From: Escherichia phage HP3
Direction: 5' to 3' (one strand)
Sequence record: NC_041919.1
Length of the DNA: 64,000 bases
The first letter of the stretch is position 1. Each line of letters opens with the position of its first letter. Positions 13,445-27,410 of the stretch are shown here, piece after piece. The notes under the pieces are model-generated. The model was not told the DNA's origin. It saw only the letters and a program-made list of their open reading frames with translations, and searched no databases. The position numbers and the translations under genes were made by a program.

Positions 13445-13489
13445 TTATCAAGGGGCTATTAAGCCCCTATTAAAATGAGGAAAATCAAA

Positions 13490-13876
13490 ATGGAAATCGG
13501 CAAAAAATACGAGTTAAATCCACATCGTATTAAATCTTTCATTGATATTAGTTCATCAAATGCTAGTATGGTCGGCATCATTCAAGAAAATGGCGGTTGG
13601 TTTGAAGTTAAATCAATATCAAGTTTAGATGGCTTTGATTATGTAACCGAAATCATTTGTGCTAATGGTGAAATCTATAATGATGATGGTATGGGTGATG
13701 ATTATTTTGAACTTAGTGAAGAAGAGTTTTATTGTTTCCGCGAATATAAAGAACCGACTTCTGAAGAGGATGAAGTCAAAGACAAGGTTTCTGGCGTAAC
13801 AAAAATTCACTGCATTGTTGACGAAAACAATGCAGATGAAATCATTGAACTTTTGCGAAAAACTTTCAAAAAGTAG
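13490..13876 (+). CDS. hypothetical early protein (frd.2 position)
   Basis: 128 aa from ATG 13490 preceded by GAGGA; acidic C-terminal part. Confidence 0.5.
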   Translation: MEIGKKYELNPHRIKSFIDISSSNASMVGIIQENGGWFEVKSISSLDGFDYVTEIICANGEIYNDDGMGDDYFELSEEEFYCFREYKEPTSEEDEVKDKVSGVTKIHCIVDENNADEIIELLRKTFKK

Positions 13877-13905
13877 TTTACATCAGGGTAGTAGTGTGAT
13901 ACTAT
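13876..13905 (+). promoter_or_regulatory. T4-type early promoter with flanking imperfect inverted repeat
   Basis: GTTTAC 13876-13881, 17-18 nt spacer, TGATACTAT -10; GGGTAGTAG...CTATTACCC inverted repeat brackets the -10. Confidence 0.45.

Positions 13906-23786: not shown

Positions 23787-23790
<4 letters not shown>
23560..23790 (+). CDS. hypothetical protein
   Basis: 76 aa, translationally coupled to neighbours. Confidence 0.5.
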
Positions 23791-25008
<1,218 letters not shown>

Positions 25009-25009
<1 letters not shown>

Positions 25010-25206
25010 TGGCTTGGCACCATGAAACTTGGGCTATTGTTATTGTAAATAGCGGTTTAGTTGGTACTAGTAATGGGCAATTTTGTGTATTTACTAGTGA
25101 AAATAGAGCATGGGAGGAATGCCTTAAATTAAGAGAAAAGAATCCTGATGTTGAACTAGTAGTAAAGAAAACTAAACTGCCTTTACCATGGAAAACGTAT
25201 GAATAA
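25009..25206 (+). CDS. hypothetical protein
   Basis: 65 aa from ATG 25009 overlapping pseT stop (TAATG); ORF track starts upstream at 24979. Confidence 0.45.
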
Positions 25207-25399
25207 CCTAGAAAAGATTTATCGTCTTTGTGATAAAATTGAAAAAGAAAAGAAATATCTATTTTGTCTATGGCCTATTGTTGACGGAAGAGTAGGCCTA
25301 GATGTTCTTGATTATGAAACAGAAGACAAAGTAGATGGCGCAACTTTTGATAACGCTTTGGATGTTATTGATTGGCTCGAAGAAAATTATGTGAGGTAA
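25199..25399 (+). CDS. hypothetical protein
   Basis: 66 aa, coupled start. Confidence 0.45.
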   Translation: MNNLEKIYRLCDKIEKEKKYLFCLWPIVDGRVGLDVLDYETEDKVDGATFDNALDVIDWLEENYVR

Positions 25400-25401
25400 A
25401 T

Positions 25402-25677
25402 ATGTTTCCGACTTACTCTAAAATCGTAGAAGTAGTGTTTAGCCAAATTATCGCTAATAATATGTTTGAAAAACTTGATAACGCAGCTGAGCTTCGAATC
25501 CACGCTCAAGTGACTCATGTATTGAACACTTTGCTTCCAGACCAGGTGGATTCTATTGCCATTACGTTGTATCCAGGTTCCGCGCATATCATTGTTGTAT
25601 TCGGTCTTGATGCTGAGCTAGTTATCAAAGGCGACATTCGCTTTGAATCTCAAACTGCGGAATTCAAAGCGATTTAA
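25402..25677 (+). CDS. hypothetical protein
   Basis: 91 aa from ATG 25402 with GAGG upstream (ORF track starts at 25372). Confidence 0.45.
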   Translation: MFPTYSKIVEVVFSQIIANNMFEKLDNAAELRIHAQVTHVLNTLLPDQVDSIAITLYPGSAHIIVVFGLDAELVIKGDIRFESQTAEFKAI

Positions 25678-25679
25678 TG

Positions 25680-25718
25680 GTTTACTTTACGGTAGAGTTG
25701 TGATATTATAGCTCTACC
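25680..25718 (+). promoter_or_regulatory. T4-type early promoter embedded in a perfect inverted repeat
   Basis: GTTTAC 25680-25685, 17 nt spacer, TGATATTAT -10; GGTAGAG (25691-25697) and CTCTACC (25712-25718) bracket the -10. Confidence 0.5.
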
Positions 25719-25739
25719 AAAACAAATGAGGAAATTGAA

Positions 25740-26267
25740 ATGAGCGAATGGTTTGAAGAAGATAAGGTTTATCGCTTTAAAACTGGGTATAAAGATATTT
25801 TTAATGAAACTTGCGGGGCTAATAAACGAATCGCCCAGTTTATTGGGGAAAATTCATTTAAAGTAAAAATTGACCCTGCAAAGAATGTTATTAGCATTAA
25901 ACGCGAAATTGATGATTGTTGGTATAAAGCTGTTGATGTAATGGGTGAATCCTATAAAGTTAGCCCGTTATTTTCAATTGCTTATATGTTAGAATATTCT
26001 TTTTTCGAAGAAGTTCAAAAAGATGATTCTGTCAGTAAATTTGAAATTAAAACTGATAAAGAAATTAAGTGGAAAGTAGTAGGTATTACTGGTTGCATGT
26101 TTTATATCTATGCTCAAACTGATACAAAGGAAGAAGCTAAAAAGAAAGCTCTAGAATATCTTGAAGAGTATGAAGAAGGCCCGGTAATGATTACCCAAGA
26201 TGCTGAATTAGTTTCTGTCAAATTAGTTAAAAACGTTGAAAGTAAGGAGCTGGGATCAACATGCTAA
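25740..26267 (+). CDS. hypothetical protein
   Basis: 175 aa; first gene after an early promoter; no motif recognised. Confidence 0.55.
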   Translation: MSEWFEEDKVYRFKTGYKDIFNETCGANKRIAQFIGENSFKVKIDPAKNVISIKREIDDCWYKAVDVMGESYKVSPLFSIAYMLEYSFFEEVQKDDSVSKFEIKTDKEIKWKVVGITGCMFYIYAQTDTKEEAKKKALEYLEEYEEGPVMITQDAELVSVKLVKNVESKELGSTC

Positions 26268-26497
26268 GCGAAAAACCAATTACTGTTAAAGAATTCCAAG
26301 AAAAAGTTAAACTATTTGCTCAAGAATTGGTAAATAAGGTTTCTGAACGATTTCCTGAAACGTCGGTTCGTGTTATTACCGAAACTCCTCGTTCGGTATT
26401 AGTAATTGTGAATCCAGGTGATGGTGACCAAATAACACATCTCAAATTGGATTTTGATGGATTAGTTGAAGCACAAAGGGTGTATGGCGTACTATGA
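26261..26497 (+). CDS. hypothetical protein
   Basis: 78 aa. Confidence 0.5.
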   Translation: MLSEKPITVKEFQEKVKLFAQELVNKVSERFPETSVRVITETPRSVLVIVNPGDGDQITHLKLDFDGLVEAQRVYGVL

Positions 26498-26832
26498 TGA
26501 ATTTAACTGATATAATTGATAATTGTCTTGAAAATGATACTGGCGATCATAGAGCGCTTGACTCTGAAACAGCAAAGTTCATTAGAATAACTTTAATGAA
26601 TGATACTCTGGTGAATAGTATTCATCCTTCTGTGTATGATGCTATTATTGTGACGAAGTATCCAGTTGAGCTTCACAAAAAGATGGTTGGCGCAATTTTT
26701 ATTGATAAGAAAAACCGCTTTAAAGATGGGCAGAATATAATTAGTTCTGTTATTAAAAGTATAACTAAACTTCGTCACGAAATTTATCGTGTTGAAACTG
26801 CTAAATCTGCTTATCTGGTGATTATGAAATGA
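26494..26832 (+). CDS. hypothetical protein
   Basis: 112 aa. Confidence 0.5.
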   Translation: MMNLTDIIDNCLENDTGDHRALDSETAKFIRITLMNDTLVNSIHPSVYDAIIVTKYPVELHKKMVGAIFIDKKNRFKDGQNIISSVIKSITKLRHEIYRVETAKSAYLVIMK

Positions 26833-27410
26833 AAGCGAGTACAGTACTTCAAATTGCATATTTAGTATCACAAGAATCAAAATGTTGCTCCTGGAAAGTA
26901 GGAGCAGTAATTGAAAAGAATGGACGTATTATTTCTACTGGATATAATGGTTCACCTGCAGGTGGTGTGAACTGCTGTGATTATGCTGCTGAGCAAGGTT
27001 GGTTGCTGAATAAGCCTAAACATACTATCATTCAAGGTCATAAGCCTGAATGTGTATCGTTTGGTTCAACTGATCGTTTTGTATTGGCGAAAGAACATCG
27101 TAGCGCGCACTCTGAATGGTCGTCTAAAAATGAAATTCATGCTGAACTAAATGCGATTTTGTTTGCTGCACGAAACGGTTCTTCAATTGAAGGTGCTACT
27201 ATGTATGTAACACTTTCTCCTTGCCCAGATTGTGCAAAAGCAATAGCTCAATCTGGAATTAAAAAGCTGGTTTATTGTGAAACATACGATAAAAATAAAC
27301 CTGGCTGGGATGATATTCTGCGAAATGCAGGTATTGAAGTGTTTAATGTTCCTAAGAAAAACTTAAATAAGTTAAACTGGGAAAATATCAACGAATTCTG
27401 TGGTGAATAA
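26829..27410 (+). CDS. cd: dCMP deaminase
   Basis: 193 aa; cytidine/dCMP deaminase zinc motifs HAE and PCxxC; matches T4 Cd. Confidence 0.9.
   Translation: MKASTVLQIAYLVSQESKCCSWKVGAVIEKNGRIISTGYNGSPAGGVNCCDYAAEQGWLLNKPKHTIIQGHKPECVSFGSTDRFVLAKEHRSAHSEWSSKNEIHAELNAILFAARNGSSIEGATMYVTLSPCPDCAKAIAQSGIKKLVYCETYDKNKPGWDDILRNAGIEVFNVPKKNLNKLNWENINEFCGE

Follow-up and report, generated by a model that had tools for sequence, protein, structure and literature searches.

The six small open reading frames (ORFs) between pseT and cd in Escherichia phage HP3 comprise five genes that are, judged by sequence and position, the phage T4 genes cd.5, cd.4, cd.3, cd.2, and cd.1, and a sixth, of 175 aa, the N-terminal half of which belongs to the GoF/Frd.2 family according to profile comparisons. 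Taken as a whole, we consider it fairly probable that this locus is the early cd.5–cd.1 block carrying an additional GoF/Frd.2-type protein with a post-transcriptional role, and that it is served by a PeSL-type cassette, a PeSL being a stem-loop located just upstream of an early promoter (PMC4122927). The window analyzed here, a 64,000-nt stretch of record NC_041919.1, is a Tequatrovirus sequence with 100% identity to Escherichia phage HP3.1, and it is collinear with T4 at 93.8–97.6% DNA identity (blastn, flanks and genes), two indels excepted.

The block is bounded by the RNA-repair gene pseT (24104–25009) on the left and the dCMP deaminase gene cd (26829–27410) on the right, and the preliminary description correctly placed six ORFs (65–175 aa) in between and recognized their tight coupling; all six are on the + strand. 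The ATG of cd.5 directly follows the pseT stop (TAA/ATG), cd.5 and cd.4 overlap by 8 nt, cd.4 and cd.3 are separated by a 2-nt gap, and a 62-nt gap holding a promoter lies between cd.3 and the 175-aa ORF, which overlaps cd.2 by 7 nt (ATGCTAA); the cd.2/cd.1 and cd.1/cd junctions are both 4-nt overlaps (ATGA). All six ORFs are uninterrupted in four Tequatrovirus genomes, with dN/dS values of 0–0.16 that indicate purifying selection. These are real, translationally coupled genes, and the presence of an early promoter predicts that they are expressed early. Each ORF falls into a separate PHROG family, and the six products are all predicted from sequence to be soluble and to have no membrane segments. 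No supported function for any of them is given in the annotation records inspected, and PDB sequence searches, run with each of the six proteins and with the family profile, returned zero matches.

The same description regarded the region as hyperplastic in T4-like genomes. The block is instead only moderately plastic, because the five cd genes are widespread across several genera in fixed order, with orthologs of cd.5–cd.1 occurring in 555–925 phage records per gene. A comparison of gene content with relatives, as had been proposed, gave five genes shared with T4 and a sixth absent from it, and the six are therefore not all T4 ORFs with assigned functions. The cluster is the standard T4 cd.x block, found in hundreds of genomes, and no new island, which removes a false lead.

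The first three genes are small and, in two cases, acidic. The cd.5 ortholog (25009–25206, + strand; 65 aa) was assigned by synteny and collinearity with T4 cd.5, which is annotated as 75 aa from an upstream ATG at 24979. The 65-aa form is covered end to end by Pfam T4_Y13H (7.5e-32) and phrog_2430 (1.2e-37), has a Shine-Dalgarno (SD) sequence (GGGAG) 7 nt 5' of its ATG, and occurs in 555 phage records (tblastn) with dN/dS of 0.14–0.16. The cd.4 ortholog (25199–25399, + strand; 66 aa, pI 4.35, net charge -7.5) carries 2 substitutions relative to T4 Cd.4 over its 66 residues, matches phrog_2360 (2.7e-41) and no Pfam family, and occurs in 688 phage records (dN/dS 0.05–0.08). The product of the cd.3 ortholog (25402–25677, + strand; 91 aa, pI about 4.9) has no residue differing from T4 Cd.3; it belongs to DUF7355 (Pfam, 1e-32) and phrog_1695, and is found in 890 phage records, Klebsiella phages among them, with dN/dS of 0–0.02. 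A "toxin" label attached to cd.3 in phage BW-1 was unsupported in every library searched.

At the other end of the block, the cd.2 ortholog (26261–26497, + strand; 78 aa) encodes a DUF7320 protein, for which the structural model (pLDDT 87.6) has a single long helix packed on a four-stranded antiparallel sheet. The cd.1 ortholog (26494–26832, + strand; 112 aa) is joined to both of its neighbors by the ATGA overlaps, has 3 of its 112 residues changed relative to T4 Cd.1, matches phrog_2063 (8.7e-50), and is present in 613 phage records (dN/dS 0–0.13); its C-terminal half also matches five further PHROGs, which lack a functional label. For cd.4 and cd.1, searches of Pfam, NCBIfam, and PADLOC were unproductive, and for cd.5, cd.3, and cd.2 they matched only DUF or T4_Y13H families. 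On rich medium, the available transposon-screen data show cd.1 and cd.2 tolerating insertions much as cd itself does, an observation that is neutral on a link to cd.

The promoter within the block (25681–25709, + strand) is the T4 early promoter Pe133.3, with a -35 element TTTACT, a 17-nt spacer, and a TG-extended -10 element TATTAT; the T4 annotation lists it as "early promoter Pe133295 between cd.2 and cd.3." It fits the PST/T4 PeSL promoter consensus TTTACW-N17-TAYWAT (PMC4122927), which is matched at four sites of the window, each on the + strand, versus 0.38 expected, and its -35 and -10 elements are conserved in Dhakavirus and Gaprivervirus. The 175-aa ORF starts 30 nt 3' of this promoter and had been credited with an early promoter of its own: the promoter is present, but it is not ORF-specific, and in T4 it serves cd.2 with the same SD. 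The "perfect inverted repeat" said to embed it is perfect for 7 bp only (GGTAGAG/CTCTACC), and the full repeat (25691–25718, + strand), covering the promoter spacer and -10 box, is imperfect (14 nt, 79%). As RNA, this repeat folds into a 12-bp stem (-16.3 kcal/mol, z -3.5), and the promoter stem of Dhakavirus E33 carries compensatory changes (GGTAGGACT/AGTCCTACC). We also asked whether the 14-nt loop at the promoter could be an invertible switch, and rejected this, as the flipped form occurs only in the 1985 T4 record X03007 among about 490 genomes.

The only perfect repeat at the locus is an 11-bp inverted repeat with a 13-nt loop (25638–25672, + strand), which occupies the 3' end of cd.3, lies just upstream of the promoter, and is a candidate attenuator. 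Its RNA fold has a free energy of -14.3 kcal/mol (z -2.8), compared with -16.6 kcal/mol (z -3.2) for the T4 counterpart, and it is absent in Dhakavirus and Gaprivervirus. The stem is positioned as in a PeSL, but it is inside cd.3 and was missed by a terminator scan. In the proposed mechanism, the block would be transcribed left to right together with pseT and cd, and boosted from the internal early promoter Pe133.3; the stem-loop and promoter would act as a PeSL-type cassette that dampens transcription reading through from pseT and starts early transcription anew.

Of about 503 related records, 301 carry the 175-aa ORF (25740–26267, + strand), of the type annotated as RB32ORF214c, at ≥90% identity in each, and about 200 lack it. 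In T4, about 9 nt stand in place of the ORF between the Pe133.3 SD and the start of cd.2, and the present/absent polymorphism begins immediately 3' of the SD. Positional orthologs of 180–184 aa, with 27–31% identity, hold the same slot between cd.3 and cd.2 in Dhakavirus E33 and AnYang and in Gaprivervirus VR25 (BLASTP, 1e-10 and 2e-7 for the slot orthologs of other genera), and T4 retains the SD and spacer GAGGAAAACAAAATG found 5' of the VR25 ortholog, in T4 fused to cd.2. Because counterparts of about 30% identity occupy this slot in two other genera, the ORF is most likely a long-standing member of the block, lost by T4 and many relatives, rather than an insertion. Its natural absence from T4 and about 200 relatives suggests that it is dispensable, and where present it is under purifying selection (dN/dS 0.10–0.16). 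Homologs were found in T4-like phages only: a phmmer search of 1.8 billion representatives returned only near-identical fragments and a 1345-aa Big_13 repeat protein, the score of which adds up 17 weak repeats and which we therefore treated as an artifact. Nothing useful on this ORF came from Pfam, NCBIfam, or PADLOC, and no paper was found under the name RB32ORF214c.

The preliminary description recognized no motif in any of the six products, and for the 175-aa ORF this fails: reciprocal profile matches establish a domain of the GoF/Frd.2 type in the N-terminal half of its product. Among 32 family members, 30 match phrog_2980 ("goF"; best E 4e-9) and 29 match phrog_622, the family of T4 GoF (4.6e-38) and Frd.2 (7.7e-47); in the other direction, the ORF's own family, phrog_3710, is matched by T4 GoF at 8e-12 and by Frd.2 at 1.4e-4. 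Alignment with hhalign of the 175-aa family gave 79% probability (E 1.6e-5) versus T4 GoF and 91% probability (E 1.2e-6, 112 columns) versus HP3.1 GoF, and single-sequence comparisons with Frd.2 and MotB.1 gave no match. The ORF in the window is the most divergent family member, its Dhakavirus ortholog being more typical in sequence, and has a goF-profile E-value of its own of only 5e-3; direct BLASTP against GoF was not significant, and a paralog search within the window (phmmer and family HMM) found nothing significant, Frd.2 being the best non-self match at E 0.23. With GoF (79592–80005 in HP3.1), Frd.2 (13475–13876 in the window), and MotB.1, the 175-aa ORF is the fourth paralog of this family in the genome. 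It has the layout of an N-domain (about aa 3–96), a flexible linker (aa 96–107), and a variable C-domain (ββαβ, about aa 108–155), as evident from the GoF/Frd.2 alignment. The AF2 model of the protein is poor (pLDDT 53.8), and the linker, modeled with low confidence, differs in length between genera. In a natural deletion in phage PaulHMueller, the C-domain is left on its own.

The GoF/Frd.2 family has been described as LSm-like (Kim et al., 2025; PMC12152347), and because the 175-aa protein belongs to this family, its role is probably post-transcriptional. GoF(D25Y) raises mRNA half-life post-transcriptionally, and the measured effect in the family is limited to this mutant, with wild-type GoF as well as MotB.1 and Frd.2 lacking a known activity (PMC12152347); an RNA-level mechanism for the 175-aa protein is an extrapolation, because the D25Y mutant alone has a measured effect. 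We propose that, like GoF(D25Y), the 175-aa protein would act after transcription, that its N-domain, a candidate LSm/SH3-like small beta-barrel built on a bent, five-stranded antiparallel sheet, may alter mRNA stability by binding either RNA or a host protein that handles RNA, and that the separate C-domain could supply specificity.

Several alternative readings were weighed against this one. The preliminary description saw typical host-takeover or anti-defense candidates in these genes, and at least one of the six proteins might be an inhibitor that binds and blocks a host protein and is relevant only in hosts with a matching defense, which we regard as possible but rather unlikely. The genes are predicted to be early, and are small, dispensable, and acidic (in particular Cd.4, with Cd.3 and the 175-aa product both at a pI of about 4.9), and T4 early non-essential genes are generally regarded as host-adjusting "monkey wrenches" (PMC6071114). 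The HIDEN-SEQ transposon-sequencing preprint (10.1101/2025.11.20.689424) used phages T4 and Bas37, both of which are without the 175-aa ORF, so this ORF, which is patchy among close relatives, is outside its scope. For the other five, the portion of the preprint available to us argues against the inhibitor reading: its tables score T4 cd.1–cd.5 and their Bas37 orthologs as non-essential, cd.1–cd.5 are not among its reported matches for RexAB, RnlAB, CBASS, DarTG1, DarTG2, or M9 minimal medium and have q = 1.0 in one T4 comparison, and the Bas37 orthologs are not among the genes highlighted in its legend for clinical isolates. Searches of PADLOC, Pfam, and NCBIfam found no defense link, with PADLOC giving one chance-level match only, and the low dN/dS together with conservation across genera is more in keeping with a constant partner than with an arms race. 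The anti-defense suggestion is thus unsupported so far for T4's five genes, and the 175-aa ORF falls in a family with an RNA-related lead. A variant that combines the two ideas, in which the 175-aa protein is a host-strain-specific RNA-level factor, such as one that shields the mRNA or tRNA of the phage from a host RNA-targeting defense, working with its RNA-repair neighbors pseT and rnlA, seems improbable to us; if true, gain or loss of the ORF beside a PeSL cassette would tune the host range of T-even phages, and the GoF/Frd.2/MotB.1 family would have a first natural function. Identity as a free-standing homing endonuclease, or as the remnant of one, would explain the presence or absence of the ORF among close relatives and the clean indel relative to T4, and the ORF is annotated as "putative homing endonuclease" in the BASEL phages Paracelsus, WilhelmHis, and PaulHMueller. 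However, Pfam searches with the ORF and 32 family members at E up to 1 detected neither GIY-YIG, HNH, LAGLIDADG, and PD-(D/E)xK domains nor any other nuclease family, NCBIfam gave no nuclease domain match, the slot orthologs of other genera point to vertical descent followed by loss, and the homology lies with GoF/Frd.2; sequence evidence leaves this reading close to refuted.

Two further alternatives concern the cd-proximal genes. Cd.1 and Cd.2 chiefly, among the small proteins, could be accessory members of the complex of phage enzymes that makes nucleotide precursors and not host-directed at all, given that T4 dCMP deaminase is a component of the dNTP synthetase complex; start/stop overlaps join cd.2, cd.1, and cd, the order cd.2-(cd.1)-cd is kept across genera, and the cd-coupled small genes are under very strong purifying selection. 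In Dhakavirus E33, however, cd.1 is missing and cd.2 runs straight into cd, and we give this reading a low probability. It is more doubtful still that Cd.2 is a DinI-like modulator of RecA or of the phage recombinase UvsX early in infection. The gene is annotated as "putative DinI" in phage Shinka, the two proteins share the motif helix...FP...VxV, and sub-threshold matches to Pfam DinI were obtained with the window Cd.2 (E 0.048) and with 13 of 26 family members (best E 0.0025); yet Cd.2 scores 14.4 bits against PF06183, short of the gathering cut-off of 24.2 bits, a BFVD structure search with Cd.2 returned DUF7320 proteins only, and its confident model of one helix and four strands is unlike the DinI fold of three strands and two helices. 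We rejected this candidate on fold.

In annotation, the gain is that the ORF labeled "hypothetical" or "putative homing endonuclease" in about 300 Tequatrovirus genomes can be re-annotated as a fourth GoF/Frd.2-type protein. Because T4 does not have the gene, T4-based screens are blind to it, and HP3, PST, RB14, and Bas36 are therefore the right systems for addressing the function of this protein family.

Among known systems, the closest counterpart of the block is T4 cd.5–cd.1 itself (NC_000866, T4p222–T4p218), with which it shares gene order, the pseT and cd flanks, and the internal early promoter; Cd.3 is identical, and Cd.4 and Cd.1 match at 64 of 66 and 109 of 112 residues. It differs in the one additional gene between cd.3 and cd.2, in the start choice for cd.5 (65 aa versus 75 aa in T4), and in cd.2, where the T4 reference has an additional G and its annotation starts at GTG. 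RB32ORF214c and RB14ORF214 of phages RB32 and RB14 are the same gene as the 175-aa ORF in the same slot (96% amino-acid identity to RB14), without substantial difference, and are labeled hypothetical protein there too. The regulatory region resembles the PeSL cassettes (Arbiol et al., 2010, PMC2839356; Comeau et al., 2014, PMC4122927) in its series of stem-loop, sigma-70-like early promoter, SD, and ATG, and in adjoining an indel between close relatives; it differs in that the upstream stem-loop lies within the coding end of cd.3 without a clear T-run, and in that a second stem overlaps the -10 box instead of preceding the promoter. Since only a single cassette flanks the variable ORF, loss by PeSL-PeSL exchange is not claimed. 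With GoF (ComC-alpha) and Frd.2 (PMC12152347), the 175-aa protein shares a homologous N-domain of about 90 aa, the motifs FE-x-K-x-Y-x-F, GM-x-PF, and E-F/A-x-F-x-EV, and the arrangement of N-domain, linker, and short C-domain; GoF and Frd.2 are likewise early, dispensable, and confined to T4-like phages, the 175-aa ORF being assigned as early by its promoter. The differences are that identity is only about 20%, that GoF and Frd.2 have 133–141 aa versus 175 aa, with a longer C-domain and an extra beta-hairpin in the window ORF, that the position of GoF D25 is occupied by Asn, and that the gene resides at another locus and is absent from T4 itself.

The six ORFs that the preliminary description had placed between pseT (24104-25009) and cd (26829-27410) are all found exactly there, on the + strand. 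Their tight coupling is likewise correct, because TAA directly precedes ATG at the first junction, the second overlaps by 8 nt, the third and fourth leave gaps of 2 nt and 62 nt (the latter holding a promoter), and the last three read ATGCTAA, ATGA, and ATGA. Since all six are intact in the four Tequatrovirus genomes compared, with pairwise dN/dS of 0-0.16, they are real genes. Over these 2 kb, the sequence matches Escherichia phage HP3.1 at 100% identity and about 500 Tequatrovirus records at 90% or more. No membrane segment is predicted in any of the six products, and searches with all six found no solved structure sharing their sequence; three of them, Cd.4, Cd.3, and the 175-aa protein, are acidic. 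What the stretch holds is the ordinary T4 cd.x block. The initial observation is confirmed with small corrections, and its interpretation is partly supported.

The sequence aligns collinearly with T4 (NC_000866) at 93.8-97.6% identity, apart from two segments missing from T4 (23794-24106 and 25735-26261). The five common genes are annotated in T4, in order of transcription, as cd.5, cd.4, cd.3, cd.2, and cd.1, all "hypothetical," and their translations are near-identical or fully identical to those of T4. By tblastn, homologs occur in 555 phage records for cd.5 (Pfam T4_Y13H), 688 for cd.4 (own PHROG only), 890 for cd.3 (DUF7355), 925 for cd.2 (DUF7320), and 613 for cd.1 (own PHROG only), reaching into phages of Klebsiella, Enterobacter, and Serratia. 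The region had been termed hyperplastic; it is instead moderately plastic, with gene order preserved in Dhakavirus and Gaprivervirus and some gain and loss. An extra 71-aa ORF lies between cd.4 and cd.3 in E33 (Dhakavirus) and VR25 (Gaprivervirus), cd.1 is absent from E33, and, upstream of cd.4, VR25 carries a MobE-like nuclease gene on the opposite strand. Outside the block, between pseT.1 and pseT, T4 also lacks a 106-aa ORF (23787-24107, +; phrog_2364), which has no Pfam match; it is labeled a "putative homing endonuclease" in BASEL records, and no nuclease motif was found in the libraries searched.

The Pfam DinI match to Cd.2 is weak (E 0.048), and 13 of 26 relatives match (best E 0.0025). 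The structure model run to test this match is confident (pLDDT 87.6) and packs a single long helix on a four-stranded sheet. The T4 reference (NC_000866 133220-133270, versus 26261-26300 in the window) contains an extra G close to the cd.2 start, AAAGGAATTCC against AAAGAATTCC, because of which T4 cd.2 is annotated as a 76-aa product from GTG. In the window and in the T4D genome of the HIDEN-SEQ study, cd.2 is open from an ATG behind the promoter's Shine-Dalgarno (SD) site, giving 78-79 aa. The extra G probably marks a difference of sequence or strain in the reference.

The 175-aa ORF (25740-26267, +), known as RB32ORF214c in RB32 and RB14, stands where T4 has ∼9 nt, precisely between the SD site of the early promoter Pe133.3 and the cd.2 start, and through the ATGCTAA overlap it provides the cd.2 SD site (TAAGGAG). 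It is present in 301 records, with identity of 90% or more in each; about 200 Tequatrovirus records, as well as Mosigvirus genomes, pass directly from cd.3 to cd.2. ORFs of 180-184 aa occupy the same slot in Dhakavirus (E33, AnYang) and Gaprivervirus (VR25), at 27-31% identity and BLASTP E-values of 1e-10 and 2e-7, and the SD site and spacer preceding the VR25 ortholog are still present in T4. The simplest history is that of an old gene lost from T4 by deletion, rather than a recent insertion. Another route of decay is seen in phage PaulHMueller (L004 2483-2740), where 270 nt between 9-nt direct repeats (TTAAAACTG) have been deleted in frame, which removes the N-terminal domain and leaves an 85-aa product with 15 N-terminal residues and the entire C-terminal domain. 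A 644-nt metagenome contig (P0004) encodes a predicted 114-aa protein in which residues 5-51 of the 175-aa ORF are fused to the end of a gp59 N-terminal domain, most likely a chimeric assembly.

Single-sequence searches with the 175-aa ORF returned near-identical proteins only, plus one repeat-protein artifact. A profile built from its three genus-level subfamilies collected 56 homologs, 32 of which were scanned against PHROG: 30 matched phrog_2980, "goF mRNA metabolism modulator" (best E 4e-9), 25 matched phrog_13003 (goF), and 29 matched phrog_622, the family of T4 GoF (4.6e-38) and Frd.2 (7.7e-47). In the reverse direction, T4 GoF matches phrog_3710, the ORF's own family, at 8e-12 and phrog_5804 at 1.6e-5, and Frd.2 matches phrog_3710 at 1.4e-4. 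Alignment of the family with hhalign gave 79% probability (E 1.6e-5) against T4 GoF residues 3-93 and 91% (E 1.2e-6, 112 columns) against HP3.1 GoF, with common motifs visible in the alignment. On the strength of these reciprocal matches, profile alignments, and motifs, we assign the ORF, by sequence, as a further member of the GoF/Frd.2 family; that an ORF missing from T4 is a paralog of these proteins is the sole new point here. The BASEL label "putative homing endonuclease" for this ORF found no support in the family-library searches.

[quoted passage not shown] This kinship suggests that the 175-aa protein may have a post-transcriptional role. Its paralog Frd.2 is encoded in the same window (13475-13876, +), directly followed by a T4-type early promoter (13877-13905) whose spacer (GGTAGTAGTGTGATA) resembles that of the promoter at 25681-25709. 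The ORF at the motB.1 position of HP3.1 (L012 6964-7509) is 181 aa, versus 119 aa annotated in T4, and of the 210 positions in its PHROG profile T4 MotB.1 covers only 43-183; it may be N-terminally shortened, or its start may be annotated too far downstream.

In the HIDEN-SEQ transposon-sequencing preprint (10.1101/2025.11.20.689424), T4 cd.1-cd.5 are non-essential, with insertions at 95-100% of sites, and the Bas37 orthologs bas37_0050-0054 are likewise scored non-essential. The only conditional hits reported in its text are rIIA/B (RexAB), dmd (RnlAB), acb1 (CBASS), adfN (DarTG1), tk.4 (DarTG2), and vs (minimal medium), and its clinical-isolate legend singles out orthologs of cef, nrdC.1, and pseT, not cd.x. 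Because cd.x genes are absent from these conditional and clinical-isolate genes, an anti-defense role for cd.1-cd.5 is unsupported so far among the defense systems listed there. Both T4 and Bas37 lack the 175-aa ORF.

The early promoter claimed for this ORF is present (25681-25709, +; TTTACT-17-(TG)TATTAT) and equals Pe133295 of the T4 annotation; the perfect inverted repeat said to embed it is not, as the repeat spanning its spacer and -10 box (25691-25718) is imperfect, with 7 bp perfect. Its RNA fold is -16.3 kcal/mol, and the stem carries compensatory changes in Dhakavirus E33. A perfect 11-bp repeat does occur directly upstream of the promoter, at the end of cd.3 (25638-25672); it is also present in T4 and absent from other genera. 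The 14-nt loop between the arms GGTAGAG/CTCTACC (25698-25711) is inverted in the 1985 T4 pseT record X03007.1, which accounts for the T4 note "inverted complement of previously reported sequence." Among about 490 further phage records, not one carries the flipped form; it represents a corrected error rather than an invertible switch. The promoter matches the consensus of the PST/T4 promoter-early stem-loop (PeSL) cassettes, TTTACW-N17-TAYWAT (PMC4122927), which is matched at four places in the window, each on the + strand, versus 0.38 expected. PeSL cassettes are described as a stem-loop, early promoter, SD site, and ATG with an adjoining indel (PMC2839356, PMC4122927). The arrangement here appears to share this layout, with a stem-loop that is a candidate terminator, an early promoter, an SD site, and an ATG beside the indel at the 175-aa ORF, and a single cassette adjoins this variable gene.
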